A model generated the notes under the pieces. It saw only the letters and a list, made by a program, of their open reading frames with translations, had not been told where the DNA came from and ran no database searches. A stretch of 64,000 nucleotides of DNA from IMG/VR virus record IMGVR_UViG_3300028809_000010; one strand, written 5' to 3'. Position numbers and translations under genes: made by a program. Of this stretch, positions 18,007 to 36,779 are shown one piece after another. Positions within the stretch are counted from its first letter, which is position 1. The number at the start of each line of letters is the position of its first letter. This DNA comes from an uncultured virus (IMG/VR IMGVR_UViG_3300028809_000010) (lineage: Duplodnaviria; Heunggongvirae; Uroviricota; Caudoviricetes).

Positions 18007-18098
18007 GATGTCTATTCCTTTGCTCGGTAATCTGTTCGGGGGTCGCGTGCCCGGTGACCTATGACGGTCGTACGCCTGTAGCGTCCTGGCACTCTTTG

Positions 18099-18314
18099 CT
18101 AGTCAGTCATGAATGCCCAGTCACCCACGGTGTTCCCGTTGTGGTCGCGCAAGATCCCCTGTTCGCCATCTCGGGGGCTCCGCTCGGACAACAGTTCACT
18201 TGCCAGCTCTCGCAGAATGCGGCCGACCTCTTCGGCGCGCTCGCTGTAGTACTCGGATGAATCGGCGTCTCCGAATGCAGCGTTGCCGGTCTCGATTTTC
18301 AGCGTGAATGCCAT
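18099..18314 (-). CDS. Small phage protein
   Basis: FTLKIETGNAAF...RILRELA...RDHNGNTVG.W; start-associated repeat. Confidence 0.65.
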   Translation of the reverse strand: MAFTLKIETGNAAFGDADSSEYYSERAEEVGRILRELASELLSERSPRDGEQGILRDHNGNTVGDWAFMTD

Positions 18315-18349
18315 TGCTCTAATCCTTTGTCCGGTAAATGGTTTGGGGG

Positions 18350-18499
18350 TCACTGCGCGTCGGGTATGGGTGACAGGATGGCGGCGATCCAGAGGTCGAA
18401 TGATCGCTCTGGATCTGAGTCGACGGCCACGGCATTTGTATTCACAAAATCTCGGTATTCCATGCCATCGTTATGGGTCATTCCGTCGGTGATAATCAT
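18350..18499 (-). CDS. Small hypothetical protein
   Basis: 49-aa ORF preceded by the start-associated repeat. Confidence 0.5.
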   Translation of the reverse strand: MIITDGMTHNDGMEYRDFVNTNAVAVDSDPERSFDLWIAAILSPIPDAQ

Positions 18500-18503
18500 T
18501 GCT

Positions 18504-18854
18504 CTAATCCTTTGCTCCGTCGGTGATCCACTCGGACAGCCCCGCGAGACGGTCGCGCTTGTCCTGCAAATTGGTTTCCTGCAAGACGTCGGTCACGATT
18601 TCGACCCAGTCCACGGAATTCAAATCGGCGTCCCGGATCTCACCGTATGCACCTTCATCGCCACCGCCCAGCTCGGAAACGTACGCTTTTACGCGATCGG
18701 CGGCCTTCTCTACGTCGTTCCACGTACTGTCTTCCTCGTCGAACCATGCCGTACGTTCGATGATGCCCATGTAGGTTTTGTAGGCGTCGTAATCGTTGTC
18801 CAGGTCGAGCCGGACGGCGGCGGTATCTCCGTGGGCTACGTTGTATCCGGTCAC
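18504..18854 (-). CDS. Acidic hypothetical early protein
   Basis: Strongly Asp/Glu-rich; start-associated repeat. Confidence 0.6.
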   Translation of the reverse strand: MTGYNVAHGDTAAVRLDLDNDYDAYKTYMGIIERTAWFDEEDSTWNDVEKAADRVKAYVSELGGGDEGAYGEIRDADLNSVDWVEIVTDVLQETNLQDKRDRLAGLSEWITDGAKD

Positions 18855-19105
18855 TGTTCTAATCCTTTGCTCGGGTGGTTATTTGGTGGTGGGTTGGTGG
18901 GTAGCCTAGTCGCGTGGTCCGACAGTCGTCACGGAGTCCAACGTATCCCGGCCAGCACTTCCCGTAGCTCTTCGGACAGCCCGGGGAGTGCTCCGAGATG
19001 AGCTAGGGCTATGCCGATCGCGAGCAGAGACGCCCAGACGGCCATTGCAGGCAGCCACAGGACTAGAAGCAGTGGGTGGCTCTGCTGCTTGCGGTAGTCC
19101 ATGGG

Positions 19106-19285
19106 TCACCTCCGCCCGCGCCATCGGTACCACGGTTCTAGGCTGTCCCAGTAGGGAACTCCGTCCGGTGTGTGATACGTCGGTTCGGGTAGGTTGCGCT
19201 TGCGGGTGAGCCAGTTGTGCACGACAGCCCGGGTGACCCCCAGAGCTCGCGCAACGTCAGACTGCCCGTAGATGGTGTCTTCCAC
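19106..19285 (-). CDS. Small HTH DNA-binding protein
   Basis: YGQSDVARALGVTRAVVHNW...LPEP. Confidence 0.7.
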   Translation of the reverse strand: MEDTIYGQSDVARALGVTRAVVHNWLTRKRNLPEPTYHTPDGVPYWDSLEPWYRWRGRR

Positions 19286-19471
19286 GGCGTCACCCCCGGA
19301 GATGCTGGAACGCCACGACAAGCGCGTGAGGGTCGTTGATGGTGAGTCCGTAGAAGACTTTGCGCGCGTAGTGAACGCTGCCCAATGCGATGGTGAGGGC
19401 TGCTAGCGTCTCGATATTCGCCAGCGTCTCACCGGGGTACGTGCTTTCCTGTGCTGCTGTGATCATTATCT

Positions 19472-19651
19472 TCAATTCCAATCGTTTTCGTCGTAGTTGT
19501 TCCAGTCGTACGCGTCGTACTCGCGCTTGTTCGCGTACAGATTCCACACAGTCGCCGAGAATTGTTCGACGCCATAACCACACGCCCTTGCCCAATGTTC
19601 GTTGGAAGTCATGCCCGTGCGTTCGTAAATCTTCGGTGCGTTCATGATCAT
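19472..19651 (-). CDS. Hypothetical protein
   Basis: Type-2 start-associated repeat. Confidence 0.55.
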   Translation of the reverse strand: MIMNAPKIYERTGMTSNEHWARACGYGVEQFSATVWNLYANKREYDAYDWNNYDENDWN

Positions 19652-19656
19652 TTGCC

Positions 19657-19944
19657 CTACTCGCTTTCTCGATACCATGTAGCCATCGAATTACCTTGGA
19701 TTGTCCAGCGATGGTCCACGGCCTGTTGTGTGATGAACGCGGCAAGACTGTTCGCGACGTGCCCGGCCGTGTCCCTTCGCGCTTGCCGCTTGAGCTCTAG
19801 CCAATTCTCGATATGCGCATCGGTGCTGTATACATCCGCCTCGGGGTTGTGCAAGATATCCCGGTCAACGCGGAGCGCCATCCCGTAATGGTGAACCACG
19901 TCACCGGTACGCAATTGGTCGGTTGTCACCCGCTCAGTAGCCAT
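19657..19944 (-). CDS. Hypothetical protein
   Basis: Type-2 repeat; ends in ESE-stop. Confidence 0.6.
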   Translation of the reverse strand: MATERVTTDQLRTGDVVHHYGMALRVDRDILHNPEADVYSTDAHIENWLELKRQARRDTAGHVANSLAAFITQQAVDHRWTIQGNSMATWYRESE

Positions 19945-19958
19945 TGCCTCACTCGCTT

Positions 19959-20279
19959 TCAGTAGTCGTGATCGGTGCCGCGTACGAACATTTCAAAGTA
20001 GCGATCCAATACACGCGCGACGTACAGCAAGCCATCGGCACCATTCCGGCGGTACTCCTCTACAATCATGTTCGTCTGCCAGTTCTCGTGAAACTCCAGA
20101 TACGCGCCCAGGTCGCCATCCGGCCGGAGCATAGGCGCGCTGAATTCCCATTCATCCGGGATGCTCTCGCCTGCCACGTACAACACTTCGGCAATGGGAT
20201 ACAGCCAGCCGACTACCCAGCCCTTTAAGTCGCGGCCGTCGAAATCGTCCGCAATCGGGAGATAGTCACGTGTCTTCAT
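19959..20279 (-). CDS. Hypothetical protein
   Basis: Type-2 repeat before the ATG at 20279. Confidence 0.6.
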   Translation of the reverse strand: MKTRDYLPIADDFDGRDLKGWVVGWLYPIAEVLYVAGESIPDEWEFSAPMLRPDGDLGAYLEFHENWQTNMIVEEYRRNGADGLLYVARVLDRYFEMFVRGTDHDY

Positions 20280-20283
20280 TGCC

Positions 20284-20490
20284 CTACTCGCTTTCGGTGA
20301 GGTAGTACCGCGACCCGTCCGGCAACGGCACGACAATGGCCGACGCTGGCACGCTGGGCGGTTCGATTCCAGGGCCGCAAATGTGGTTGCCCATGGTCGC
20401 GCAGTTCCAGCCCGCGTCATCCTCGGCGATGGCGTTTGCGGTGCCCGGTGCGATGAACAGCATTGCCAGCAGGAACAGAATGGTGTGCAT
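20284..20490 (-). CDS. Small secreted protein
   Basis: Signal peptide, then EDDAGWNCATMGNHICG. Confidence 0.6.
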   Translation of the reverse strand: MHTILFLLAMLFIAPGTANAIAEDDAGWNCATMGNHICGPGIEPPSVPASAIVVPLPDGSRYYLTESE

Positions 20491-20898
20491 GACGGCCTCC
20501 AATCGGTGGTAAGTGAAGGGGATACGCGGGACCGCGCCATTGAGGTCCCTAGCCGCGCCATTGAGGTTGTATCCCTTGCGCCCTTAGTGACCTATGACGG
20601 TCGTACGCCTGTAGCGTCTAAGGGCCTTCTAGCTATGAGTTGGCGACGATCGAATAAGTGACCGTTCGGACTACCTCGCGTCGCCAATCGCCGGACGGAA
20701 CGATGATTTCGTGGTAAGCGATGACGCAAGTCCCTGCCGCGATCGCAGAGCCGGGATTGGTCGACCGGTACCACGTGGACGCGGCCACCAGTGCGGCGTG
20801 CGCGCCGGGCAGGGTGTCATGGGCCGACAGGCGGAACACAACCGGTTCGTGGTGCCGCGCGTACTCGGAGATTTGCTCGGTTCGAATGACTGTCCAGC

Positions 20899-21216
20899 TC
20901 ATCGCGCACCACCGAGAATGCGGAAAGCGTCGGCCAGCCCCTGGGGATCGTTCCTTCGCAGCAAGTTTGCCGCCATGTGGTGGCCGGACAGTCCCAGGTG
21001 GACGTCTACCGGGTTGCTCCCCACACGGAACAGCAGAGCCAGCGCTACAGGGTCGTTCCTGCGAAGCATCTCGCCGACGTTCGCGCGGATGGTGGATTGG
21101 GCGTAGCCCTTCAACGCGCGTTCGGAGTAGGCCCAGTCGAGGTTTGTGCGGGAATCCTCGGCCGTCAGATTCCATTCGTGGTCGGTGGTGTCGCTGGCCT
21201 TATCGAGAGTGATCAT
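20899..21216 (-). CDS. Hypothetical protein (probably first gene of the leftward operon)
   Basis: AGGAGGAAAG RBS. Confidence 0.6.
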   Translation of the reverse strand: MITLDKASDTTDHEWNLTAEDSRTNLDWAYSERALKGYAQSTIRANVGEMLRRNDPVALALLFRVGSNPVDVHLGLSGHHMAANLLRRNDPQGLADAFRILGGAR

Positions 21217-21504
21217 GGTTCTTTCCTCCTGGGTGTTGGTGTACGCAAATACGTGCTTTGAGCGACGCGGAGTGGAATCGAACCACTCTTTGATTGCCTG
21301 GTGCCCTAAGGCCGCGTCGAAAGTGTGAGTTGGATGGTTGGGTGGCTAGTCCAGCTTGCGACTCGCGTATGTGGCACATAGGGCCGATTAAGCCCACTTA
21401 GAGTTTCTGCGATCGCTGCCTATTGAGTTTGCCGATGTACGTGCGGAGTAAGCGTTAGGGAAGGGTGGAAATCGTCCGGCCCGCTAACCCGCCGTGAACT
21501 TCAT

Positions 21505-21602
21505 GTACACATAGTGCTCTTTAGGCGGATACGGTGTCAACACCCTTGCAAGTCACGGTACGGTAACGATCGCCTGTATGCCTAAGTCGCTGGTTTTGTC
21601 AA
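21505..21602 (-). promoter_or_regulatory. Two tandem SigA-like promoters facing the leftward small-gene array
   Basis: Two TTGACA hexamers on the minus strand (tgtcaa ending at 21540 and 21602) with weak -10 candidates about 18 bp away. Confidence 0.5.
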
Positions 21603-21779
21603 TACTTTTGCAGAAATTTCTAGTCTTTAACGTAGGAAAGTATGGGTCGTGACCTGCGGATATTCGCCAGAATCGACGAACGCAACCTAGTTGGTGTGGC
21701 TGTACCGGAGAAGCCCTTTCGTGGCTTAGGAGGCCATATAGGGCCCTTTGTGTACGTCACTGATTGGGCTGTATCCGCT

Positions 21780-22095
21780 GTATGTGGCTACCTGTGTGCA
21801 CCATGCATACACGCACCCCCGTATACGCATACCTATGTGTACATACTACCTATGTGTATGCATAGTATGTACATACACACACAGTATGCATACACATACA
21901 TTGCATAGTTCAACTATCTAGAACACACACTATCTACATGAACACAATCTATTAGATCACTATCACACACCATGATCATCTGCATATGAACCATTGTATA
22001 TGCATAGTATGTATGCGCATACAGCCAAGCGATGTGCAGAGTACACACGCCGCATCGCACCCCGATCACTCGCGCAGACATGCACACACACCACC
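21780..22095. repeat. AT-richer alternating purine/pyrimidine tract (ATGCATA, CACACA, TATGTG units)
   Basis: Directly visible low-complexity non-coding sequence that contrasts with the GC-rich coding DNA. Confidence 0.8.
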
Positions 22096-22536
22096 CGATG
22101 TCAAGAGTGAGGTTGCGCCGGTGCTCGTGCGAGCTTGCCAGCCTCTGCACTCCGGCGAGATCTCGATGTGTGCCTGCCACGGATTGGCCATCGACGCTCG
22201 CACGCGCTCGCCGAAGCCACCTCGAGCCTTGCTGATCTCACAGCCGAGAAATGTCTGGCAATCGGACGCCGAGTGTCACACCAAGATCGTCCCCAAATAG
22301 CCTACCCCCCTAGGGTTTACGGGTATGGGGGGGTATACCCGGTATGGGTAATCGTCAAGAAAGGTTGACGCCGCCTCGCGCCTTTTCCCTCTCTATTCAA
22401 AAAAGTGCTCTGACCTGCGGTTTTGCGAGGAATTTCGCGGATGTCGACTCGTTTTTCGCCGAGTGCGCCTTCGAAATTGATGCCCGGCCGCGCATACCCC
22501 CCCGGAAAATTCACGCGGCCGGACATACCCCCCCAA

Positions 22537-23997
22537 TTATCGCTTGGCGACCGAGTCGAGAATGGAGGTGGTGAGGGCCTGGCGGTCGGGGGCAATGGAC
22601 ACCACGTCGATCGCGACTTTGCCGGGAGTGCGCTTTCCTGCCCCGAGCCTCTGCATGGTGATCTTCACGCTGAGCCGGAGGAGCGCTCGTTTGTCGACGA
22701 GTTCCATGTCACCCCAGATCAGGAGCGCGTCCCGAGCCAGGACATCCAACAGCGGCGAGATGAGTGCGGCCTTGCGCTGGGTTTCCAGGTCGGCGATCTG
22801 GGGGAGGAGTTCGGCCTCGGCGTCGACGAGAGAGGCCACCGACAGTTTCCCCTGCTTGGCGTACGTCCTGTATTCCTCGAGCCGCTTCTTCAGGGCGTTG
22901 AGCTCGGTCTCGATAAGAACCAGCCCGGCGTCCGGCGGCGGCACATCTTCGTCGATATCGAACAGAACCGTATCGGCTTTCCAACCAGCGATGATCTCCC
23001 GGACGCGGTCGGTGACGTATTTGTCGGAGTCGTCGGCCCGGCGCGTGAGGCATCCGTTGGTGCGGCAGACGTAGCGCCCCCCTCGGCCACGGTTCTGCCA
23101 GCAGACAGGCTCGCCGCACACTCCGCAGACCATGATGTTCGTCAGTAGGTGCTCGGGATGCTTGCCCCGGGGCTCCGCCAGTTTGTTTCCCTCGATCCTC
23201 GCGACGAGCTGCTGGTGCTGGTCCTCGGTGATGATGGCAGGCCAGGTCCCCTTAGACACGACCTCTCCGTAAAGAGTGCGGAGCCCGGCGATCTTCGGTC
23301 GGATCAGGACTTGCCGGATCGTGGTGATCGTCCAGGACCCTTCCTTCTGCGCGCGGGGGACTCCTCTCGCCGTCCACTCCCGCTGCACCGCCCGCAACCG
23401 CCCACCGGCAAGGATGTGATCGACGGCCCAGCGGATCGCGTCGGCGGCAATCGGGTCCTCCTGCCACGTCCAGGTGCCGTCGGGCTCGTAGACCTTCTGG
23501 TAGCCGAATCCGAGCTTGGCGTGGGGGTTGCCAGAGAGGGCGCGCTTGCGGATGTCTCGCTTGATCCGGTCGGAGAGCTGGTCGCTTTCGTGTTCGTTGA
23601 CGACGGCCTTGATGCCGGTGGACAGCCGCGCGTTCGTGTCGGTGAGGTCCAGGAGCTCGCCACCGGAGCACAGCAGCACCCCCCGCTCGACACAGAGGTC
23701 CCGGAGTTCGACCCACTCCTTCAGGCGGCGGGAGGTGCGGGACTGCTCCCAGATGACCAGGACGTCACCGGGCTGGAGTACGGTCAGCAGCCGCTTGTAG
23801 CCGGGGCGGTCCTTCGCGGCGAATCGGCTGGCGCTGGTGTCGTCGGTGATCTCCGGTCCGGGGGTCCAGCCGTTGGTGGCGATGACGTCACGCCCGACCT
23901 CGAGCTGCTGGGGGACCGAGCACTTCTTGCCGCCCTTGCTGTCGCTGACTCGGGCGTAGAGGACAGCGCGGCGGGTGCGGGCAGTGGTGGGCTTCAT
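22537..23997 (-). CDS. int: Large serine recombinase (integrase)
   Basis: YARVS catalytic Ser, SRTSR, FGY recombinase domain, Zn ribbon CGVC...C...C, coiled coil. Confidence 0.95.
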   Translation of the reverse strand: MKPTTARTRRAVLYARVSDSKGGKKCSVPQQLEVGRDVIATNGWTPGPEITDDTSASRFAAKDRPGYKRLLTVLQPGDVLVIWEQSRTSRRLKEWVELRDLCVERGVLLCSGGELLDLTDTNARLSTGIKAVVNEHESDQLSDRIKRDIRKRALSGNPHAKLGFGYQKVYEPDGTWTWQEDPIAADAIRWAVDHILAGGRLRAVQREWTARGVPRAQKEGSWTITTIRQVLIRPKIAGLRTLYGEVVSKGTWPAIITEDQHQQLVARIEGNKLAEPRGKHPEHLLTNIMVCGVCGEPVCWQNRGRGGRYVCRTNGCLTRRADDSDKYVTDRVREIIAGWKADTVLFDIDEDVPPPDAGLVLIETELNALKKRLEEYRTYAKQGKLSVASLVDAEAELLPQIADLETQRKAALISPLLDVLARDALLIWGDMELVDKRALLRLSVKITMQRLGAGKRTPGKVAIDVVSIAPDRQALTTSILDSVAKR

Positions 23998-24011
23998 GGG
24001 TGGCCTCCGTG

Positions 24012-24061
24012 GGGTACGTATTAAAAATGCTAGTGCAGATGAAGGTAATTAATACGTACCC
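24012..24061. other. Candidate attP
   Basis: Perfect 13-bp inverted arms GGGTACGTATTAA / TTAATACGTACCC around a 24-bp spacer (50 bp total, central CA), next to the integrase start. Confidence 0.75.
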
Positions 24062-24222
24062 TTGCCCACTCACGTCAACGATTCTTCCACCCGGCCTCGA
24101 TCACGGGGGCGCCCGGGGGGATCGGGAGGGCTGTGACCTGGGGAAACGTCTGCGGCGTCTAGCCGGGTCGACAAGGGGAGGGGTACTGTACATCTACCCG
24201 CTGAGCCCCGAGGAGCCCCGAG

Positions 24223-25008
24223 TTGAGCCGACTGCTGTACGGATACCGCCGGACGGAGACTGGTGTCGAACCGGTCCCGGAGGAGGCGCGTGTCGTGCAG
24301 GAGATCTTCGAGGAGTTCCTGGCTGGGACGAAGGTGCAGCGGATCGCTCAGTCCTTGGCGAAGCGCGATCTGCGGGGCCGCCGGGGAGGACTGTTCACCA
24401 GCCCGCAGGTGCACCGCATCCTCCGCCAAGCGACGTACGCCGGTGCCGACGAGGGGTGCCCCGCTCTGGTCTCGCAGGCCGTCTTCGATGCCGCCCAGGA
24501 GAAGCTGGACAGTCCGGAGCGACAGAGCTTCGAGAGGGGGCAGCCTCCGGCGCATCTGCTGACGGGGATTGCCCGGTGCGGGGTGTGCGGCGCGGGGATG
24601 AAACGCTCGAGCCGGGGCAGCAGACAGCCCGACACCTACGCCTGCCCGAGCCTGGATCGCAGCACCCCCCACCCCGCGCGAGAGATGGCCTTCGTCGACG
24701 AGCTGGTGACGGAGACGCTGTTCTACATGATCAATACGGATCACTTCGCCGAGGTGCTGGGGGCGGCCGTGGAGAAGCGGGCCCGACAGAAAGCGCTGCT
24801 GGGCCGGGCCCCCGATTCGCCGCTGATCGACCTGGCCGAAGCGACAGACCCGCGCCAGGCATGGGAGGACCGTCCGCTGGAGTGGAAGCGGAGCCTCCTC
24901 AAGGACACCTTCCGCATCACGATCCTGACGGTGCCGAAGGAGAAGAAAGGTCGACACAACGGGCTCGATCCGCAGTTCGTGGACATCAGGTGGGCGGAAG
25001 GTGTGTAG
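24223..25008 (+). CDS. Serine recombinase DNA-binding domains only (recombinase plus Zn ribbon; no catalytic domain)
   Basis: YGY...EEARVVQEIF...YAG...ALVS...HLLTGIARCGVCG...YAC; GAGGAG RBS; no YxRxS N-terminal domain. Confidence 0.85.
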   Translation: MSRLLYGYRRTETGVEPVPEEARVVQEIFEEFLAGTKVQRIAQSLAKRDLRGRRGGLFTSPQVHRILRQATYAGADEGCPALVSQAVFDAAQEKLDSPERQSFERGQPPAHLLTGIARCGVCGAGMKRSSRGSRQPDTYACPSLDRSTPHPAREMAFVDELVTETLFYMINTDHFAEVLGAAVEKRARQKALLGRAPDSPLIDLAEATDPRQAWEDRPLEWKRSLLKDTFRITILTVPKEKKGRHNGLDPQFVDIRWAEGV

Positions 25009-25010
25009 CG

Positions 25011-25364
25011 ATGTACAAGACCGAGAAGGCGATGTGGGCGTGGCTGAGCAACTACTGGCGCGCCCTGGCGGAGATGTTTTCGACGTACCGGGAGCGGCGG
25101 GCCGGTAGGTTCCTGAAGGCGGCCCCCAAGCGCTTGGAGGGGGAGGGCGTCATCGGCTACGGAGCTGCATGGCCGAAGCGGGTGGCGCAGCGTCAGGGCG
25201 TTTCTATCGGAATGGAGCTTGGCATGTTGCTGCGCGTTTTGATCGGTCTGGTCGCCGCCGTCGGCATTGCGGTCGCCATCGTCGGCCTGTCTTCGTACCA
25301 CTGGGCGTCGTACCGATTCCGGCCGAAGCAGCGCGACGAGGACTGGCCGACAACCGTAGTGTGA
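25011..25364 (+). CDS. Membrane protein
   Basis: Long C-terminal hydrophobic helix. Confidence 0.55.
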   Translation: MYKTEKAMWAWLSNYWRALAEMFSTYRERRAGRFLKAAPKRLEGEGVIGYGAAWPKRVAQRQGVSIGMELGMLLRVLIGLVAAVGIAVAIVGLSSYHWASYRFRPKQRDEDWPTTVV

Positions 25365-25454
25365 CGATTTGCACTTTCAGGTTGAAGCCTGATCTCGAGT
25401 AGGCTCGCGCCGGAGGCACTTCTACGCCAATTAATGGACGCCTCCGGAATCTAA

Positions 25455-25492
25455 CTCCCCGCCGTCATCCGTGACTGGCGGGGATTTCTTTT
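25455..25492 (+). terminator. Intrinsic terminator
   Basis: tccccgcc...ggcgggga followed by tttctttt. Confidence 0.6.
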
Positions 25493-25663
25493 GGTCGTGT
25501 CGGCCCGCCTGCACTGGCGATCGGCTGACACAAGCAGCCCCGGTTGGGTAATTCCTCGCCCCGCGCTTTCATGGGTGGTTTCGCGGTCGAGCTTGAGGTA
25601 CCAACCGGGGCTTTGTCGTGCCCGGATGCCATGAGTCCGGGATGAGTAAAAGCAGGTCCCGCA

Positions 25664-26629
25664 ATGCGAAAGATCTCAGTAGTTCTACTGTGCGCCGCCG
25701 CAATTCCCGTCACCGCCCTCACCGGCACCGCCCACGCCGAGGAAGCTCCCGATTGCCGGGACGTGGTCATCGGGGTCGGCGGCAATGGCCAGCGCTACGC
25801 CGAAAGCAAGGGCGCACGCACGATCATCACCGACATTCTGGCGGACAAGGACGCCGAGGGTTACCGGACCGAGAATGTCGATTACACGAGCTCTGTCTGG
25901 CCGACCGGTCCGTACACCAAGGACTACTCGGTCGAAGAGGGCCGGGCCGAACTGGATCGGGAGATCGCCGAATACCGGGCCGAGTGCCCGAACGGCGAGG
26001 TAACCGTCATCGGCCATTCCCTCGGCGCGGAAGTGGTGGAGACACCCGACGCCGAGCACACCATTCTCCTGGGCGACCCGAGGGACCAGCAAGGTATATA
26101 CAACGCGCTCCCCGGCGTATTCCCAGGTGCCTCCAATCCCGGCTCGCGAGATGCCGAAGCGGAAGGGGCGGTGAGTGTCTGCCGCGAGTTCGACGGCATT
26201 TGCGACACCGCCGCCCCCTGGAGTGACCCGGCCAAGTTCGTGCAGGGCACCGCAGGCTATCTGATGGGCTGGCACGGCTACTCCCCGGAGGAAGTCGACC
26301 AGTATCAGGGTGCAGCGCCGGGTGAATACCTGATCGACGCACCCAAGCCGATCGAGTGGCTGCCGGAGTCGACGCCGACGGGAATCCCGGCAGCGCCGGA
26401 GCTGAGCCTGCCGGAAATCGCCCCGCCGGTCCCACTGCCGTCTGCTCAGGATTTCTACCCGCTCGAGCAGCTGGGCCAGCCGTACACGCCGACGCCGCTG
26501 GAGGAATACATCCCCGAGTGGGTCGAGCCGGTGCTGCCGCAGGAAGTCCTGAACTACGTGCCTCCGGCGCCCGAGCAGGTTTTCGTTCTGCCGCCCGCGC
26601 CGGAGTTCCACATCCCGGGGCTGTTCTGA
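25664..26629 (+). CDS. Secreted cutinase/PE-PPE-like serine esterase with Pro-rich tail
   Basis: Signal peptide (AHA), GHSLG nucleophile, LLGDP, C..FDGICD and WHGY. Confidence 0.85.
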   Translation: MRKISVVLLCAAAIPVTALTGTAHAEEAPDCRDVVIGVGGNGQRYAESKGARTIITDILADKDAEGYRTENVDYTSSVWPTGPYTKDYSVEEGRAELDREIAEYRAECPNGEVTVIGHSLGAEVVETPDAEHTILLGDPRDQQGIYNALPGVFPGASNPGSRDAEAEGAVSVCREFDGICDTAAPWSDPAKFVQGTAGYLMGWHGYSPEEVDQYQGAAPGEYLIDAPKPIEWLPESTPTGIPAAPELSLPEIAPPVPLPSAQDFYPLEQLGQPYTPTPLEEYIPEWVEPVLPQEVLNYVPPAPEQVFVLPPAPEFHIPGLF

Positions 26630-26994
26630 TGTTCGACTTGAGCAGTCCGGTCTCTCACATGTGCTTTGATGCCGTCGACGGACTCCGGGTGATAGTCGTG
26701 CTGCCCAGTTTCAGCTCGGAGGAAGCGACGCTCGGATCACTCAAGGAAATGATCGAGCAGGTTCGGGAGCTTTCCCCTAATGCGATCGAGTCGGTGAGCT
26801 GCTCGTACCCGAGGCGGTACGTGAAGTTCACGTCGGGTGGCGAGATCATATTCCTGAGCGAGCAGAGCAGAGGGAGTGGACGCGGGCTCTCTGGGGATCG
26901 CCTGTACATCCGCCACGGCGTATCGGAAGAGACTCGCCGGTCCATGCTCCCCGTGGTCTGCGCGCGCCCAGGTGGCATGATCACCTACTTCTAG
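26629..26994 (+). CDS. Mini-protein resembling a degenerate terminase ATPase core
   Basis: Colinear by eye with TerL from GERLII to ARPNPQMIY (IEQ, VS.S, SG..I.F, G.GRG..D, P.V.ARP); no Walker A and no Walker B DE. Confidence 0.65.
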   Translation: MFDLSSPVSHMCFDAVDGLRVIVVLPSFSSEEATLGSLKEMIEQVRELSPNAIESVSCSYPRRYVKFTSGGEIIFLSEQSRGSGRGLSGDRLYIRHGVSEETRRSMLPVVCARPGGMITYF

Positions 26995-27138
26995 ATTTGC
27001 CGGAACATCGAGGGGCCAGACAGTCCTAGGAACTCGAGAACCGGAAGTCGGGAGCGGTACTGCCAGGCGGACAGCGGGGGTTGGCCCCGTGTAGTCACCT
27101 GAATGCAGCATTGCCCCGGCGGTACAACTGAATAGGTC

Positions 27139-27210
27139 GTCTCACAGCAAAAGGGGCCAAGCGTCCGTTGATCGCGGTGCGCAGGCGGGGTTCAAGTCCC
27201 CGGTGAGACA
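27139..27210 (+). ncRNA. tRNA-like element (degenerate; possible GAT anticodon)
   Basis: Acceptor GTCTCAC/GTGAGAC and T arm CGGGG-TTCAAGT-CCCCG; weak D and anticodon arms. Confidence 0.55.
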
Positions 27211-27434
27211 CAAAGCGTGGGGTAGCTCCCTGCGCTGGTGATGACAGAGTGTGCAGGCTGATGCGCGACCGGGCCTGCAATGTGCGCGATATCAGGACCC
27301 TGACAGCCCTGTGGGTGTTTACGGGATGGCTTAGCGGCCGGAAACTGATGCCTCAGCGGGCAAAGTCGCGGCGCCGGGTACATAGCCTTACGGTCCATGC
27401 CCCGGTCGGAGCCTAGGAAACTCCTCACCACCCT

Positions 27435-27507
27435 TGGTCTGTAGCTCAGAGGACAGAGCACCGGTCTACGAAGCCGGGTGTCGCAGGTTCGACTCCTGCC
27501 AGATCAG
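27435..27507 (+). tRNA. tRNA-Arg(ACG)
   Basis: Canonical cloverleaf; CCGGT-CTACGAA-GCCGG. Confidence 0.9.
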
Positions 27508-27595
27508 CAAACGAACCCTCGGAATGTGCGCACGACCTCCGGGGTAGTAGGGATCAGCCCACGCCTCTCGAAGAAGCGAACCTCGGGCTGGATTC

Positions 27596-27681
27596 GGAAG
27601 GTGCCGCTGAATGGTCGGCAACCGGTGTCGAATACCGGGGTGGGGTAAAACCCAGGGGTTCGATCCCTCCACCTTCCTCCA
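27596..27681 (+). tRNA. tRNA-Ser(CGA)
   Basis: GGAAGGT/ACCTTCC acceptor, long variable arm, loop GTCGAAT, encoded CCA. Confidence 0.85.
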
Positions 27682-27682
27682 C

Positions 27683-27747
27683 GCCCCAACGGGTTGCTAG
27701 CGGCCACTTGATCAACGGCCGTGCTCGGGTTCGAATCCCGAGGGGGC
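27683..27747 (+). ncRNA. Truncated tRNA-like element
   Basis: GCCCC/GGGGC stem, T arm TCGGG-TTCGAAT-CCCGA, 11-nt anticodon-like loop, no D arm. Confidence 0.45.
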
Positions 27748-27750
27748 TCT

Positions 27751-27834
27751 GGAAGACAAATCGGCCGGGGGCCGAGCCGCGTTGCTAGCGCGTACGGGCA
27801 CTTGATGTCTGGGGTTCGAGACCTCTGTCTTCCG
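27751..27834 (+). tRNA. tRNA-Ser(GCT)
   Basis: GGAAGAC/GTCTTCC-G acceptor, loop TTGCTAG, long variable arm. Confidence 0.8.
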
Positions 27835-27837
27835 CAA

Positions 27838-27917
27838 CGGGGTGACCTCTTGGTAGAGGGAGCGGCCTGTAAAGCCGTGGCCGTAGTGCATTGGTGGTTC
27901 GACTCCATCCGCCCTGA
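27838..27917 (+). tRNA. tRNA-Tyr(GTA)
   Basis: GCGGC-CTGTAAA-GCCGT, long variable arm, discriminator A. Confidence 0.8.
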
Positions 27918-27919
27918 CT

Positions 27920-27995
27920 GTGGCCGAAGCTGAAGCGGATAAGCGCCCGGTTGTGGTCCGGGTAGTAGTGGGTTCGAGTCCCACCGGCCACCCCA
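27920..27995 (+). tRNA. tRNA-His(GTG)
   Basis: CCCGG-TTGTGGT-CCGGG, discriminator C, encoded CCA. Confidence 0.85.
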
Positions 27996-28046
27996 TCTCG
28001 CTTGTCCAATACATGCAGTTATCGCTATGAATGCATGGGAGGCCGA

Positions 28047-28325
28047 ATGTCGATCCCCGGCCGGAACACCCCGGAATGGCGAGCGCTGTGTAAGCGGCTC
28101 AAGCGGGAGCTCCCGAACATCTGCTGGGTCTGCGGCAACGAGATCGACCTCTCCCTGTCCGGCCGCGACAAGTGGGGCTGGAGCCTCGACCACGTCCGGA
28201 AGCTGTCCCTGCACCCGGAGCTCGCCGAAGACGAATCCAATCTCCGCCCGGCTCATATGTGGTGCAACGCAACCCGAGGTGAGGGCGTACACGGCTACGT
28301 CAACGGCTCACAGAAGTGGGGATAG
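28047..28325 (+). CDS. HNH endonuclease (packaging-associated type)
   Basis: CWVCG...LDH...NLRPAHMWCN. Confidence 0.9.
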   Translation: MSIPGRNTPEWRALCKRLKRELPNICWVCGNEIDLSLSGRDKWGWSLDHVRKLSLHPELAEDESNLRPAHMWCNATRGEGVHGYVNGSQKWG

Positions 28326-28640
28326 ATGTCGCGCGACGAATACACCAAGCACCCCGATGACGTTCTCGACTACGTATTCGACTGGGCCGACTGGCTTTCG
28401 ACGGATGCGGACACGATTGTCGACTCCGACATAACCGTCACTCCGGCCACCTCACCCGCGCTGGCTATCGACGACCCGGTCCCGCACATCACCCTGCCGA
28501 CGAATGTTCGGGTCTGGTGCTCCAGCGGCCTCGACGGGCAGCGCTACATCGTGCGCAACCGAATCACAACTGCCGGTGGCAGGACAAAAACCAGTTCCAT
28601 CACCATCTCGGTGACAAGCAAAGTTCAGCAGGTGATGTAA
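28326..28640 (+). CDS. Putative tail-fibre adaptor / virion protein
   Basis: KHPDDVLDYVFDW..WL...VWCSSG..G..Y..RNRITT.GGRT pattern. Confidence 0.65.
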   Translation: MSRDEYTKHPDDVLDYVFDWADWLSTDADTIVDSDITVTPATSPALAIDDPVPHITLPTNVRVWCSSGLDGQRYIVRNRITTAGGRTKTSSITISVTSKVQQVM

Positions 28641-30889: not shown

Positions 30890-31302
30890 CCGATCCGGAA
30901 ATCGACGCCTACCTGGACAAGCTCGACCAGGAGTCGGGTGAAGACGGCCCACTGTCGGCGGCGGCCAAGTCCGGCTCGACCCGCAGGGCCCTTGTCGCAC
31001 TGAGGGACATTCTCGCCCACGAGATCGAGGGCAACCGCTGCAAGACCTGCCGGATGACGCAGATGCGCACCGGCGAACTCTCCGCGCTGGCTCTGCGCTT
31101 CCAGAAGGTCATCGAAGACCTCGAGGCGCTGCCCGACGACGAACAGCCGGACAAGCCGGTACCCGAGGGGGTGACGAGTCTTGCCTCCATTCGCAATCGA
31201 CGACCATCCAATGGGGTGGCAACGTCCCCCGATCCTGCACGTCCCAACCTCGGCACAAAGTCTGCACCTCGACGACAAGGCGGCCGTAAGAGGTCTGGGT
31301 GA
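30886..31302 (+). CDS. Terminase small subunit
   Basis: Directly before TerL; ALVALRDILAHEI...LSALALRF...LEAL. Confidence 0.75.
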   Translation: MTDPEIDAYLDKLDQESGEDGPLSAAAKSGSTRRALVALRDILAHEIEGNRCKTCRMTQMRTGELSALALRFQKVIEDLEALPDDEQPDKPVPEGVTSLASIRNRRPSNGVATSPDPARPNLGTKSAPRRQGGRKRSG

Positions 31303-32761
31303 CGAAGCGATCGACCTGGCCACCTTCGCCGGGCTCGAGCTCGATGAGTGGCAGCGGTTCGTCATCCGACAGATGGCCGCCACGACCACCGAGGAATTCT
31401 GGAACCCGTACACCGAGCGCGTCGAAAACAAATGGGCCGCAAGCGAATACGGGCTCATGGTCAGTCGTCAGAACGGCAAGGGCAGCATCCTCGAAGCGCG
31501 TGAACTGGCGGGCCTTTTCATCTTCGGTGAGCGCCTGATCATCCACTCCGCGCACCAGGCCGACACCAGCTTCGAAGCCTTCAACCGCATCATGCAGTTG
31601 ATCGAGCAGACCCCGGACCTCGAGCGCGAGGTAGCCCGGGTTTCCCGCTCCCACGGCACCGAGGGCATCGAGCTCAAGTCGGGCCAGCGCCTGCGTTTCC
31701 GAACCAGGACCAAAGGCGGCGGCCGAGGCTTCACAGCGGACTGCATCATCTTCGACGAGGCGATGCTGGAGCTGACCTCCACGCAGATCGCCGCCATCAT
31801 GCCGACCGTCTCCGCGCGCCCGAACCCGCAGATGATCTACACCGGCTCGGCAGGCACCAAGGAAGCCGAGCACTTCGGTCGCGTCCGGGCTCGAGCCCTC
31901 AAAGGCGGCGACCCCCACATGGGCTGGTCGGAATGGTCGATCACCCCCTGCAACTACTTCTGCCCGATCGACTGCGACGAGCACGACTCGCCCGACGATC
32001 CCGCCAGCCACGCAAAAGCCAATCCCGCTATGGGAATTCGGATTACCGCCGAGCACATCATGAAGGAGCGCCGGGCCATGTCGCTCGAGACCTTCCTTCA
32101 GGAGCGCTGCGGCGTGGGTGACTGGCCTTCCGACGGCGACGGCTGGTCCGTGATCGACCGCGACGCCTGGGAAGGCCGGGAGAACCAGCTTTCGAGTCTG
32201 GTCGGCAAGTTCGCTATTGCCATCGACACGGCCCCGAAGGCGAGCTATTCCTGCATCTCCGCCGTCGGCCTGAACGAATTCGGTGACTTCCATTGCGAAA
32301 TCACCAAGGAGGGCGACGAGAACGGTGAGGGCCTGTTCGATTACCGGCAGGGCATTCGCTGGGTCGTTCCTCGCGTGCTGGCGATCTGGAAGGCCAACCG
32401 GCCCGCGTTCGTCGTCATCGACAAGGCATCTCCGGCGGGCACGCTGATCGAAGAGCTTGAAAGCCACGGCGTGAAAGTCGTGTCGCCGACGATCCGCGAG
32501 TTCGCGCAGGCGTGTGGCGACGTGAAAGACGGCTTCGCCCCGCGTGATCCGAGAAATGCAACCCACATTCACCTGAACCAGGCTCCGCTGAATCTGGCCG
32601 TGGCGAACGCGGAAATGCTGCCTCTCCAAGATCTCTGGCGCTTCTCCAAGTCTGCGAGCTCCGCCGACGTAACTCCACTGACATGTGTGACCTTGGCCCA
32701 CTGGGGCTTCAAGCAGCACATCTACAAAAAGGCTTCGAAGCCTTGGGTGATTAGGCGGTGA
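31181..32761 (+). CDS. Terminase large subunit
   Basis: LDEWQ, SRQNGKG Walker A, IIFDEA Walker B, GSAG, ANPAMG, nuclease AIDT; start may be the ATG at 31211. Confidence 0.95.
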   Translation: MPPFAIDDHPMGWQRPPILHVPTSAQSLHLDDKAAVRGLGDEAIDLATFAGLELDEWQRFVIRQMAATTTEEFWNPYTERVENKWAASEYGLMVSRQNGKGSILEARELAGLFIFGERLIIHSAHQADTSFEAFNRIMQLIEQTPDLEREVARVSRSHGTEGIELKSGQRLRFRTRTKGGGRGFTADCIIFDEAMLELTSTQIAAIMPTVSARPNPQMIYTGSAGTKEAEHFGRVRARALKGGDPHMGWSEWSITPCNYFCPIDCDEHDSPDDPASHAKANPAMGIRITAEHIMKERRAMSLETFLQERCGVGDWPSDGDGWSVIDRDAWEGRENQLSSLVGKFAIAIDTAPKASYSCISAVGLNEFGDFHCEITKEGDENGEGLFDYRQGIRWVVPRVLAIWKANRPAFVVIDKASPAGTLIEELESHGVKVVSPTIREFAQACGDVKDGFAPRDPRNATHIHLNQAPLNLAVANAEMLPLQDLWRFSKSASSADVTPLTCVTLAHWGFKQHIYKKASKPWVIRR

Positions 32762-32923: not shown

Positions 32924-34480
32924 ATGGCTAGCTTCTGGTCCCGCCTGCGTAAGAAGGACGAACCCGAGACCCGCGACCTGTCGATCAACGACTGGATCTC
33001 GCAGATGAAGTCCCAGCAGACCTTCGGGTATCGGGGCAATCGCGAGACAGCCAAGCAAGAGTCCATCGGCGACCAATTCATCGAATACGTCCACGGCGCC
33101 TATCGCTCGAGCGGTGTGGTTTTCGCCTGCTGCCAGGCCCGCCAAATCATCTTCTCCGAGGCGCGGTTCGCGTTCCAGGACATCAGCAACTACCGCCCCG
33201 GCGACCTGGCTGACGGCCCGGAGCTGGATCTGCTCGACGTTCCCTGGGAGGGCGGCACTACCGGCGAGCTGCTGGCGCGGGCCATCCAGGACGTCGACTT
33301 GTCGGGCAACCACTACGTCGTCAAGGAGTACAAGGGCGAGGGCAAGTGGCAGCTACGCAGGCTCCGGCCCGACTGGGTCGACATCGTCCTGACGGCGGAC
33401 CCGAAGATGGCTCGCCAGGCCGACATCGACGGCTACCTCTACCGGCCGGACCGGACCGAGGACAAGAGGCTGTGGGAGTACTTCCCGGTCGACGGCTCCA
33501 ACGGCCGCATCGCGCACTGGGCACCCATTCCTGACCCCGAGGCCATGTTCCGGGGCATGTCGTGGCTGACGCCGGTTGTCCGGGAAATCATGGGCGACAA
33601 AGCCATTTCCGACCACAAGCTCAAGTTCTTCGAGAACGCCGCGACGCCGAATCTGTCGGTCAGCCTGAAAGAGACCGTTTCGAAAGAGGACTTCGAGGAG
33701 TTCGTCGAGGCGATGGATGCCACGAAGGTCGGTGTCGAACATGCCTACGAAACGCTCTATCTCGGCGGCGGCGCGGATGTTCAGGTCATCGGCGCGAACG
33801 TCCAGCAGATGGATTTCAAGGTTGTCACTGCGATCGGTGAGACCCGAATTGCCGCCGCTGCCCGAGTGCCTGCAAGTGTTGCCGGTATCTCGGAAGGATT
33901 AGGCGGCTCGAGCCTCAACGAAGGCAACTTCAACGCCGCCAAGGACCAATTCGCTTCCGGCACACTCCGTCCACTCTGGCGTTCCATTTGCGCCGCCTAC
34001 GCCCCACTGATCCAGGTGCCGAAGGGCAAGCGCCTCTGGTTCGACGACAGGGACATCAGTTTCCTGCGAGAGGACCAGCTCAAGGTCGCCCAGCGGTTCC
34101 AGATCGACGTCACCTCGGTTACCCGACTGGTGATGAACGGCTGGAAACCGGATGAGTCGGTTCGGGCCGTCCAGGAACGCAACCTGGGTCTGCTCGTCGG
34201 CGCGCATTCGGGCCTGTACTCGGTGCAGCTGCTTCCGCCGGAGGTCAGCAAGCCAGATCTCGCTGCGGCGAAAAAGGCCGAGGCGGATGCAGAACAAGCC
34301 AAGGGCGACAAGAAGAAAGACCCGCCCGCGAACCAACAAGGAACAGGCTCGAAGCGTCGACCCGGCCCCGGCAGGCCATCGAAGTCCGAAACCAAATCCG
34401 ACGAATGGCTAGACGCCGTCCGGGATGGCGAGGACTGGCGCGAGGACTGGGAGGACGAAGATGACCAAACTGACCCGTGA
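32924..34480 (+). CDS. Portal protein (HK97-like)
   Basis: VFAC, GNHY, LRPDWV, RGMSWL, FFENAATP, IAAAARVP. Confidence 0.92.
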   Translation: MASFWSRLRKKDEPETRDLSINDWISQMKSQQTFGYRGNRETAKQESIGDQFIEYVHGAYRSSGVVFACCQARQIIFSEARFAFQDISNYRPGDLADGPELDLLDVPWEGGTTGELLARAIQDVDLSGNHYVVKEYKGEGKWQLRRLRPDWVDIVLTADPKMARQADIDGYLYRPDRTEDKRLWEYFPVDGSNGRIAHWAPIPDPEAMFRGMSWLTPVVREIMGDKAISDHKLKFFENAATPNLSVSLKETVSKEDFEEFVEAMDATKVGVEHAYETLYLGGGADVQVIGANVQQMDFKVVTAIGETRIAAAARVPASVAGISEGLGGSSLNEGNFNAAKDQFASGTLRPLWRSICAAYAPLIQVPKGKRLWFDDRDISFLREDQLKVAQRFQIDVTSVTRLVMNGWKPDESVRAVQERNLGLLVGAHSGLYSVQLLPPEVSKPDLAAAKKAEADAEQAKGDKKKDPPANQQGTGSKRRPGPGRPSKSETKSDEWLDAVRDGEDWREDWEDEDDQTDP

Positions 34481-36779
34481 TTTCGAATTCCGGAGCGGCG
34501 GCGGGGACGGTGACGACGGTTTCACGCTGACTGGCTATGCGGCGGTGTTCAACCAGGACACCCAAATCCGCAGCTGGGAAGGAACATTTACCGAGCGCAT
34601 CGCCCCCGGGGCTTTCCGAAAGACGCTGCGCGAGAACCCGAACGTGATGATGCAGTTCAATCACGGGCACGACGTTCGGGTGGGCACGGTCCCGATCGGC
34701 CGCTTCACTGAAATGCGCGAAGACGAGCAGGGCCTCTTCGTCCAGGGACGACTGAACGACAACGACGTTGTGGAGCCGATCCGCCAGGCGCTGGTCGACA
34801 AGCAGATTCCCGGTATGTCGTTCCGGTTCATCGTCGTTCGCGATGAGTGGGCCGATAAGGACGGCAAGAAGATCCGCTCCGCTAACGAACTTGCCGAGAT
34901 GCTGTACAACCCGGACCACGAACGCGGGCCCCTTCAGCGCACGATCAAGGAACTCCGGATCTCCGAGGCGGGACCGGTCACTTCCCCGGCTTATCCACAG
35001 ACCTCGGTAGGCGTGCGCAGCGCGGAGGATCTTGGCGAGGCCGAGCGGGCTGACATTGCCGCCAGCTACGTCCGAACCGCGCAGCTGGAGTCCGAAGAGC
35101 GCAGCGACGATCACAGCGACCACGTTCACTTCCGTTCCGACGACGTCGAAGCCTGGCTCGAAGCCGAACGTGCCTTCAACTGGCTCGAAGCCGAACGTGC
35201 CTTCAACTGGCTCGAAGCCGAGCGCACACATCAATGGCTGGAAGCCGAAAAGGCCCATGCCGCAAAGACCCCGAGTGACGCCGACCGCCAGGTCACCTCG
35301 CTCGATACCCCGAAGTCCGACGCCGCCAAAAGCACCTCGGAGAAGCGGGACATCCCCACGAAATCCAAGAAGAAAGAGGCACGGGTTATGACCCTCGCTG
35401 AACTTCGCGAGCACCTGGCGGTCCTTCAGGGCCAGCGTGACGCACTGAACGACGAATACGGCGAACGCGCCATGTCCGACGAGGACCAGGCGACCTTCGA
35501 CAAGCTGACCTCCGACGCCGAGCGCACCGAGCGTCAGATCAAGGCCATCGAGAAGCGCCTGGCCGAGGCCAAGGGCAATGTCTCCGAGCGCACCATCGAC
35601 GGCGCCCCGGGCTTCCGCAAGAGCGTGGACGAGGACGAGCTCCACGACATGGACGCCATCCGCGCCAGCGCCCGGTCCCTCGACGACCTCGTGGTCAAGA
35701 AGACCGACGCGGCCAAGCGGATCGCCGAGCGCATGAACTGGGCCACCACGGAGCGGACCGAGTCCAAGGATCACGCGATCTACCTGCTGGACAAGGACTA
35801 CACCGGCGAGCTGGCCGAGCGCATGATCAACGCGGGCTCCAAGGCGTACGAGCGTGCCTGGTCGAAGTACGCGGCAGGCAAGGCGATCGGCGGCCTGACC
35901 TTCGAGGAGCAGCGCGCCCTCCAGCTGGGTAGCGATCCCGACGGTGGCTTCGCCGTCCCCGTTCAGCTCGACCCCACGGTCATCTGGACCTCGGCGGGTG
36001 TCGTCAACCCGATCCGCTCGCTGGCGACGGTCAAGACGATCACCGGCAAGGAATACCAGGGTGTGACCTCGGGTGGCACCACGGTCTCGCGTTCGCTGGA
36101 AGGCGCCGAGTTCGCGGAGAACACCTGGACCCTGGGCCAGCCGACCATCCGCACCGAGCGCGTGACCGGCTACACCACGTTCACCTACGAGGCCGAGGCA
36201 TGGAACGCCATCCGCGAGGAGATCGTCTTCGCGCTGCGCGACGCCAAGGACCGTGAGGAGGCCGAATCCTACACCAACGGCAACGGCACCTCGCCTGCTC
36301 CGTTCGGCCTGGTTTCGACCCACGCGGCCCCGAACCTGGTCGACACCGCCGTCACTGCCGCGTTCTCGGACGTCGACCTGTACGCGGTGAAGGAGGCTCT
36401 CGATCCTCGCTACCGTGCGGGCGCCGTCTGGATGATGGACGAGGGCATCGTTCACCAGATCCGCATGTGGGCGCAGAACGACGGCCCGGACCTGATCCAG
36501 CGCATCGACGGCCCCAACCCGGATCGCCTGCTGGGCTTCTCGGTTCACGAGAACTTCAACATGTCCTCGGCCCTGACCGCCGGTACGAAGATCGCGGTCT
36601 TCGGTGACCTGAAGGGTTACTACATCGTCGACCGCGTCGGCATGTCCATCGAGGTCAACCAGATGGTCCTCGGCCCGAACCGTCGTCCGACCGGCCAGCG
36701 TGGCATCGCCGCCTACTGGATGAACAACGCCAAGTGGTGGGTTCCCGGTTCGGCGAAGACCCTGAAGATCAAGGCGTGA
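34461..36779 (+). CDS. Prohead protease-major capsid protein fusion (internal capsid start probably at 35388)
   Basis: HK97 protease motifs GYAAVFN, FNHG, MSFRF, EAGPVTSPAY; then DGGFAVP...FGDLKGYYIVDR capsid; RBS before MTLAEL. Confidence 0.9.
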   Translation: MTKLTRDFEFRSGGGDGDDGFTLTGYAAVFNQDTQIRSWEGTFTERIAPGAFRKTLRENPNVMMQFNHGHDVRVGTVPIGRFTEMREDEQGLFVQGRLNDNDVVEPIRQALVDKQIPGMSFRFIVVRDEWADKDGKKIRSANELAEMLYNPDHERGPLQRTIKELRISEAGPVTSPAYPQTSVGVRSAEDLGEAERADIAASYVRTAQLESEERSDDHSDHVHFRSDDVEAWLEAERAFNWLEAERAFNWLEAERTHQWLEAEKAHAAKTPSDADRQVTSLDTPKSDAAKSTSEKRDIPTKSKKKEARVMTLAELREHLAVLQGQRDALNDEYGERAMSDEDQATFDKLTSDAERTERQIKAIEKRLAEAKGNVSERTIDGAPGFRKSVDEDELHDMDAIRASARSLDDLVVKKTDAAKRIAERMNWATTERTESKDHAIYLLDKDYTGELAERMINAGSKAYERAWSKYAAGKAIGGLTFEEQRALQLGSDPDGGFAVPVQLDPTVIWTSAGVVNPIRSLATVKTITGKEYQGVTSGGTTVSRSLEGAEFAENTWTLGQPTIRTERVTGYTTFTYEAEAWNAIREEIVFALRDAKDREEAESYTNGNGTSPAPFGLVSTHAAPNLVDTAVTAAFSDVDLYAVKEALDPRYRAGAVWMMDEGIVHQIRMWAQNDGPDLIQRIDGPNPDRLLGFSVHENFNMSSALTAGTKIAVFGDLKGYYIVDRVGMSIEVNQMVLGPNRRPTGQRGIAAYWMNNAKWWVPGSAKTLKIKA
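35154..35256 (+). repeat. 27-bp tandem repeat (about 4 units) encoding WLEAERAFN-like peptides
   Basis: TGGCTCGAAGCCGAACGTGCCTTCAAC twice exactly, plus two diverged copies. Confidence 0.9.

Follow-up and report, generated by a model that had tools for sequence, protein, structure and literature searches.

All tailed phages depend on the terminase as their motor, which is also a main target of the immune sensors of bacteria. Why would a phage with a complete large terminase subunit (TerL) carry a second, stand-alone gene for a piece of the same ATPase? This question is raised by a gene at nucleotides 26629–26994 (plus strand) of a 64,000-nucleotide stretch of DNA from an uncultured virus, hereafter called the window. 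Its product of 121 amino acids, the mini protein, covers that part of the terminase ATPase core which begins with the helix behind the P-loop and ends with strand beta4. The window itself represents one soil phage of actinobacteria, of the Rhodococcus REQ1/Shagrat type.

The gene and its surroundings

The mini gene is an intact open frame, coupled to the gene upstream as had been noted in the original prediction: the TGA of an upstream serine-hydrolase (esterase) gene and the ATG of the mini gene overlap by one base (TGATG). The GC content at codon positions 1/2/3 is 0.56/0.47/0.78, the same pattern as in the hydrolase, HNH and TerL genes, in which the third-position value is 0.80–0.81. From base 22342 on, the window is matched at 99.98% identity by a second virus record (G001), in which the copy of the mini gene is identical. 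A protein collection holds a version (P0003) that is 98% identical, and soil-metagenome contigs are identical across the mini gene, with no variant inside it. No match for the ORF was found in Pfam, NCBIfam or PADLOC. Judged from its sequence, this is a real gene, and very probably an accessory one.

The gene directly upstream (25664–26629, plus strand) specifies a cutinase-like serine hydrolase of 321 amino acids (PF01083, E=1.3e-6). Inspection of the sequence suggests to us a signal-peptide-like N-terminus and a Pro-rich tail for this hydrolase; it lies far from the endolysin gene (50993–52861), and its relatives in Gordonia and Rhodococcus phages are annotated as "serine hydrolase" or "lysin B". 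An equation with lysin B of Gordonia phage Octobien14 was considered and dropped, the similarity not being significant (E=0.22). Also upstream of the mini gene is a small ORF whose product, by eye, looks membrane-spanning. Between the mini gene and that for an HNH endonuclease (28002–28325, plus strand; phrog_338, E=7e-18), which stands at the head of the region leading to the terminase genes, ARAGORN located five tRNA genes (Arg, Ser, Ser, Tyr and His; 27435–27995, plus strand), two of which are confirmed by Rfam at the gathering score. Across the whole window ARAGORN found seven tRNAs, those beyond the cluster lying at 40504–40577 and 59106–59188; a tRNA Trp is situated 26 bases ahead of the tape-measure gene and a tRNA Pro inside the early region. 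In the right arm of Shagrat the corresponding order is serine hydrolase, serine protease and HNH, as against serine hydrolase, mini gene, five tRNAs and HNH here, so that the mini gene takes up a variable position immediately before the packaging region.

The resident TerL gene (31181–32761, plus strand; phrog_9, E=2.2e-69) encodes an intact SRQNGKGS Walker A motif, RG loop, FDE Walker B motif and TGSAG C-motif. Its product is 51% identical to the TerLs of REQ1, Jflix2, Shagrat and Madraxi, and the closest TerLs in the protein collection include, by their source names, proteins of Nocardia, Rhodococcus and Streptomyces. The N-terminal 330 residues of the primase/polymerase (7531–9777) are 50% identical to Madraxi gp95. 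Four of the TerL relatives (P0043, P0086, P0101 and P0117; 831–882 amino acids) are 300–350 residues longer than the rest, and three of these carry precomputed Pfam matches to PF05204 and PF14528, which we take to be families of homing endonucleases or inteins, and TerLs of this phage's lineage may accordingly contain inteins.

A full-length serine integrase is encoded on the minus strand at 22537–23997, approximately 2.6 kb from the mini gene. Head-to-head with it, and 1.6 kb upstream of the mini gene, lies a serine-recombinase fragment of 261 amino acids (24223–25008, plus strand) that matches positions 245–445 of the 651 in phrog_95. It covers the middle of serine integrases only, lacks the catalytic N-terminal domain, and is probably the remnant of a second integrase. 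The stretch from 17000 to 23000 has a GC content of 0.56–0.60 as against about 0.62–0.67 elsewhere and contains minus-strand genes (for a ParB C-terminal-domain protein, among others) before the integrase; it is probably an acquired lysogeny or accessory module. Further along the window, the 784 amino acid product of 34425–36779 (plus strand) matches both a head maturation protease (residues 8–303) and a major head protein (residues 17–745), which makes it a fusion of protease and capsid like the one annotated for Rhodococcus phage Jflix2. The 1830 amino acid tape measure protein (40603–46095, plus strand) matches the endolysin family phrog_971 over residues 1155–1488 (whole-protein E=2.1e-42).

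Relationship to the terminase ATPase

BLASTP analysis aligned residues 38–120 of the mini protein with residues 137–220 of the resident TerL (34.3 bits, E=5e-7, 23/86 identical). When a four-sequence profile of the mini family was compared with a 38-sequence TerL alignment using hhalign, residues 16–120 of the mini protein matched residues 114–220 of TerL with a probability of 96.3% and an E-value of 1.6e-9. Both results uphold the colinear alignment with TerL that had been drawn by eye, and the structural comparison, like that of the profiles, gave the expected likeness to terminase ATPases. Against Terminase_6N domains, the ESM Atlas model of the mini protein reaches a query-normalised TM of 0.80; it retains helix alpha1, the parallel strands beta2, beta3 and beta4 with their helices, and a three-stranded hairpin insert; the ASCE core fold of the TerL ATPase is present. 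Sequence searches of the PDB returned nothing meaningful with the mini profile and chance matches only with TerL alone.

As a control, six TerL queries were run by tblastn against the window between 24000 and 28100. Four of them matched the mini ORF (E=1.5e-7 to 1e-3), while the phage's own TerL and P0008 gave no match on it. Outside the mini ORF nothing in this stretch was better than E=0.038, and there are thus no flanking terminase remnants.

Motifs lost and retained

It had been claimed that the ORF starts after the Walker A region and has IRH in place of the Walker B FDE, and both observations were borne out. The alignment begins beyond the SRQNGKGS of TerL, the mini protein starting at the post-P-loop helix, and no GxxxxGK[ST] occurs anywhere in the 121 amino acids. 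LYIRHG stands opposite IIFDEA of TerL, with Arg95-His96 (codons at 26911–26916, plus strand) at the position of the Walker B Asp192-Glu193. At the C-terminus MITYF sits opposite MIYTGSAG of TerL; the C-motif, the lid and the RNase-H-like nuclease are absent, and the tblastn control revealed no terminase-like sequence 3' of the mini stop. On the evidence of these motifs, the usual binding and hydrolysis of ATP are impossible for the mini protein, and it cannot be a motor.

What has been kept is an Arg-Gly pair, Arg85-Gly86 (codons at 26881–26886, plus strand), which aligns with R182-G183 of TerL and with the LRG loop of P74-26 TerL. Together with the start Met, these are the only invariant residues in all ten aligned sequences (nine small proteins and the TerL core); four more columns of the same alignment, among them that of Asp90, are nearly invariant. 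Among 38 TerLs of the phage's lineage, R182-G183, the P-loop, D192-E193 and R213 are all invariant.

According to PMC5727402, the trans-acting arginine finger of P74-26, confirmed by mutation, is R139, between alpha2 and beta3, and those of D6E and phi29 are placed between alpha3 and beta4. The TerL profile aligns with P74-26 weakly (E=0.091), gggRGftaD..ilDEa....PtlsaRpn being paired with dnlRGatlDfvilDEa....PtlsvRdg. The residue number is taken from that paper and from the title of entry 4znj, and equating R139 with the aligned Arg requires an inferred offset of five residues in the crystallised construct. Within the limits of this weak alignment and numbering, the position of the arginine-finger loop appears to be kept in the mini protein. 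The mini protein has an arginine at both finger places, namely R85 and R113 (in "CARP"), of which only R85 is family-wide.

The small proteins differ in how much of the ATP site they have lost. Walker A is absent in eight of the nine that were aligned, the exception being the 154 amino acid gp117 of Octobien14 (GDRQSGKT). MadKillah and Stromboli still show DE as their Walker B pair, and Elva the D only; the pair is lost in the mini protein (RH), P0004 (PH) and P0005 (AG), and also in Zucker and Eesa. These graded states point to a stepwise loss of the ATP site with the RG loop retained.

A family of small actinophage proteins

The mini protein matches phrog_6910 (PHROGs v4, "unknown function", 125 positions) with an E-value of 4.6e-13 (50 bits; protein residues 14–116, profile positions 22–116), and the identical copy in G001 does so at E=1.6e-14. 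The match of the resident TerL is weaker (E=3.4e-7). phrog_6910 comprises proteins of 105–125 residues in Mycobacterium, Microbacterium and Arthrobacter phages, and the mini protein, stand-alone, 121 amino acids long and without a P-loop, belongs to the same size class. Several members come from phages that were isolated on laboratory strains (Mycobacterium smegmatis, Arthrobacter globiformis and Microbacterium foliorum). Also matching this profile are MadKillah gp4, annotated as "ASCE ATPase" (E=3.4e-56), Elva gp30 (E=7e-35), Zucker gp1 (E=2.1e-17), Eesa gp1 (E=5.4e-13) and Octobien14 gp117 (E=2.4e-9). Compared directly, the mini profile and MadKillah gp4 gave a probability of 95.1% (E=3.1e-8).

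A phmmer scan of 1.84 billion representatives returned four matches at E ≤ 0.001: the near-identical P0003, P0004 (119 amino acids, 34% identical), P0005 (105 amino acids, 43% identical) and P0006. The last of these (605 amino acids, E=2.7e-4) is a low-complexity repeat protein and was judged spurious from its sequence. Since no terminase was among the matches, the mini ORF is not a fresh piece of another phage's TerL, and this origin was rejected. Word-index searches found only P0003, P0004 and P0005. A search with P0005 led to 30 Mycobacterium (Cluster O), two Microbacterium and two Arthrobacter records, and one with Elva gp30 to six Microbacterium, five Arthrobacter and two Gordonia records; Pseudomonas and "Bacteriophage sp." matches of the P0005 search (E of 5 to 7) were attributed to chance. 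tblastn with the mini ORF against 50,697 phage records gave nothing at E ≤ 0.01. Scans for the locus in genome contigs and metagenome contigs also gave nothing, and those of viral contigs only the window's own lineage and one contig end with the first 40 residues of P0005.

The structural searches led to the same kind of protein. Eight of the top 12 matches in BFVD are proteins of 108–155 amino acids from named Mycobacterium, Gordonia and Arthrobacter phages, and two further ones are small proteins (112 and 111 amino acids) without a name. The look-alike clusters in the ESM Atlas have 59 to 351 members of 112–125 amino acids, mostly from Actinomycetota and their viruses. Homologues at 23–34% identity share the start, end and length of the mini protein, and phages of at least five host genera carry homologues with this length and these boundaries. 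The original prediction that the gene is old is supported.

The same prediction had called the gene a mini-copy of the terminase ATPase core and compared it with the phage's own TerL, but a diverged duplicate of that TerL it is not. In an all-against-all comparison with other small proteins the mini protein scored 54, 50, 44 and 30 bits, as against 20–40 bits with eight TerL cores, and its own TerL, at 33 bits, was not the best TerL match. As the best of the small proteins (44–54 bits) score higher than the TerLs, the family, of which the mini protein is a member, seems to have branched off the terminase ATPase once and long ago, as far as pairwise scores of short sequences tell, rather than by repeated copying of resident TerLs. 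We are confident that the mini gene is a real accessory gene, and that phrog_6910 descends from the terminase ATPase core as an old family of stand-alone proteins, having lost beta1 with the P-loop and the part after beta4 and, in the sub-branch of the mini protein, the Walker B acids as well. Full-text searches on mycobacteriophage ASCE ATPases and truncated terminases brought up no account of the family. The mini protein is a new member of an existing, unnamed and uncharacterised actinophage family.

Gene position and selection in relatives

In Arthrobacter phages Zucker and Eesa the family gene is gene 1, directly ahead of TerS-TerL-portal. In Octobien14, gp117 is located two genes after lysin B, in a stretch of the right arm ending with an HNH gene. 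In Microbacterium phages Elva, Stromboli, SanaSana and BabyYoda (four of the four seen) it follows the gene for a Cas4-family exonuclease with overlapping stop and start. The Cluster O copies adjoin DNA methyltransferase genes in the early, leftward operon at the left end, whose genes are mostly of unknown function according to a comparative paper of 2015 (PMC4351075). On the contig of P0005, genes for a primase-helicase and a lipoprotein come before it. No neighbour is conserved across these lineages. For this reason, and because the gene upstream of the mini gene specifies a secreted hydrolase, the idea of a split ATPase completed by a neighbour was rejected.

In REQ1, Jflix2 and Madraxi, which have the closest TerLs, TerL is the only match to phrog_6910. 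Shagrat has an additional weak match (E=2.8e-4) at positions 49335–49520 of its own record, in a frame of 199 amino acids away from TerL; from its sequence, this may be another ASCE-type small protein.

Analysis of nucleotide substitutions among the homologues gave a mixed answer. In one Microbacterium pair, Stromboli and SanaSana, there are six synonymous and no non-synonymous changes. In Cluster O, four copies (gene 4 or 6) differ by 5–9 non-synonymous and 0–2 synonymous changes per pair, a ratio of 1.6–2.5, all these counts being tiny, the Cluster O pairs non-independent, and the family gene alone having been counted. The changes cluster near the N-terminus. The Cluster O copies appear to be under either relaxed or diversifying selection. 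Over the long range, frame, length and RG loop have all been retained.

Possible functions

A protein that neither binds nor hydrolyses ATP must work by contact. This, together with the single conserved loop and the frequent adjacency to packaging genes, leads us to favour, tentatively and at less than even odds, the view that the mini protein could be a non-catalytic terminase mimic that docks on the subunit interface of the motor and tunes or blocks the phage's own packaging. The homology, the fold, the lost motifs, the invariant RG and the spread of the family are established, whereas TerL binding and the direction of its effect are inferred. The Arg-Gly loop before the Walker B strand, kept by every member, would correspond to the P74-26 loop whose trans-acting arginine finger reaches the ATP site of the neighbouring subunit. 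On the most economical view, the mini protein would dock on the ATP-bearing face of a TerL subunit. Once there, it could offer an arginine finger yet be unable to pass the cycle on, or it could cap the subunit such that the ring cannot close. In either case the phage's own packaging motor would be tuned or held back.

The position of the gene near packaging genes in several lineages (Zucker and Eesa, Octobien14 with its HNH gene, and the present phage, in which it lies upstream of the tRNAs and HNH and, further on, TerL) is consistent with docking on TerL, whereas the Microbacterium and Cluster O copies lie away from them. The gene is also dispensable, since the four phages with the closest TerLs, REQ1, Jflix2, Shagrat and Madraxi, package their DNA without such a gene. 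The matching of RG to R139 depends on the weak alignment and the numbering offset given above, and the neutral-or-faster change of the Cluster O copies over the short range is unusual for a motor subunit. A complex prediction for the mini protein with residues 1–260 of TerL gave scores of 0.10 and 0.00 (mark, 0.32), which we count neither for nor against docking.

Perhaps the whole of phrog_6910 consists of "arginine-finger-only" terminase subunits, that is, terminase ATPases stripped to the half that touches the neighbour. These would be a new class of trans-acting regulators that plug into the TerL ring and gate the firing of the motor or poison the motors of rivals. We regard this as possible but rather doubtful; if it is true, the terminase of actinobacterial phages has a third associated component that had not been seen before.

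Immune sensors of TerL (Avs-type STAND proteins, Upx) might instead be shown a terminase-like surface by the mini protein, which would then be a decoy or other anti-defence protein, or simply a trigger. The patchy distribution of the gene, its changing place in the genome and its rapid short-range change in Cluster O fit a gene of conflict. Moreover, vs.8 and Ksap2, small proteins resembling the terminase ATPase, are bound by or activate Avs2, and the authors suggest a possible anti-defence role (PMC13601566, PMC11564622). However, nothing in the present data speaks in favour of a decoy. Activation of the sensor is the opposite of what a decoy does, and these published look-alikes argue against a decoy since they trigger the sensor rather than blunt it. 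EcAvs2 contacts the terminase-bound ATP (PMC13601566), and the mini protein has no P-loop. Upx has been modelled gripping beta1, beta4, beta5 and beta6, two or three of which are absent in the mini protein, and no PADLOC-DB family matched the mini ORF or its three upstream neighbours at E ≤ 0.1. We consider an immune interface unlikely.

Equally, the fold alone may have been kept to serve outside packaging, as a non-catalytic partner, in replication or recombination, of a nuclease or of another ATPase of the ASCE/RecA type. The Cas4-family exonuclease gene directly upstream in the four Microbacterium phages, the early leftward operon of Cluster O (PMC4351075), the primase-helicase gene preceding P0005's copy, and a BFVD look-alike labelled as replication-associated all agree with such a role. 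Nevertheless, none of these neighbours is conserved across lineages, and the closest relatives in sequence and fold are always terminases, never helicases or recombinases, which makes this an improbable explanation.

A weapon between phages, in which a lysogen expresses the mini protein and thereby poisons the terminase ring of superinfecting phages, had been put forward in the original prediction. An arginine-finger loop without an ATP site is what a ring poison requires, and the mini gene lies close to the serine integrase gene, within a stretch that is variable and also encodes a secreted hydrolase. However, in the examined stretches of the Cluster O, Microbacterium and Arthrobacter relatives there is no integrase and the gene is found among packaging or early genes, and a prophage-only role does not fit the family there. 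In addition, no promoter-like site was found in 23900–28400, and the mini protein is not usefully closer to foreign TerLs than to its own. We would give this proposal little credence.

That the gene is a functionless, decaying relic of a captured terminase gene is scarcely credible and already largely refuted: although the recombinase fragment at 24223–25008 indicates that the region does hold gene debris, and the Cluster O ratio is 1 or more, the frame is intact with gene-like codon bias, no terminase debris lies on either side, the small homologues had no full-length TerL ahead of them in the scan of 1.84 billion representatives, length and boundaries are the same in at least five phage host genera, and the Microbacterium pair has synonymous differences only.

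Comparison with known systems

The mini protein agrees with members of phrog_6910 such as MadKillah gp4, Catdawg gp4, Elva gp30 and Zucker gp1 in its start after the P-loop, its end at beta4 and its invariant RG. It differs from the family members of isolated phages in being only 23–29% identical to them, in having Arg-His for the Walker B acids of MadKillah and Stromboli, and in its genomic slot. One relative in phrog_6910, gp117 of Gordonia phage Octobien14 ("AAA-ATPase", 154 amino acids), resembles it in position, since its gene follows closely on that of an esterase (lysin B) in the right arm. Unlike the mini protein, gp117 keeps both the Walker A motif and an acidic Walker B motif, and may for this reason still bind nucleotide.

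With the ATPase of HK97-type TerLs (D6E, 5oe8; Sf6 gp2, 4iee; P74-26, 4znl; HK97, 6z6d) the mini protein shares the ASCE core and the RG loop, and also the ARP arginine before beta4. It is without beta1 and Walker A, the catalytic Asp-Glu, the C-motif, the lid subdomain and the nuclease domain of those enzymes.

Small look-alikes of the terminase are newcomers to the literature, in which they figure as activators of Avs2 without an explanation. According to Evans et al. 2026 (PMC13601566), vs.8 of T4 is also a small stand-alone homologue of the terminase ATPase beside a normal TerL. Compared by that description, vs.8 belongs to T4-like phages, is toxic with EcAvs2 and keeps Walker A and Walker B, whereas both motifs are absent in the mini protein. 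Ksap2 of phage Bas60, another small protein of unknown function, has a fold similar to the terminase ATPase (Bechon et al. 2024, PMC11564622). Beside these, phrog_6910 is a cleaner case, for in this family the ATP site is gone and the loop that reaches the neighbouring subunit is the one part that has been kept everywhere.
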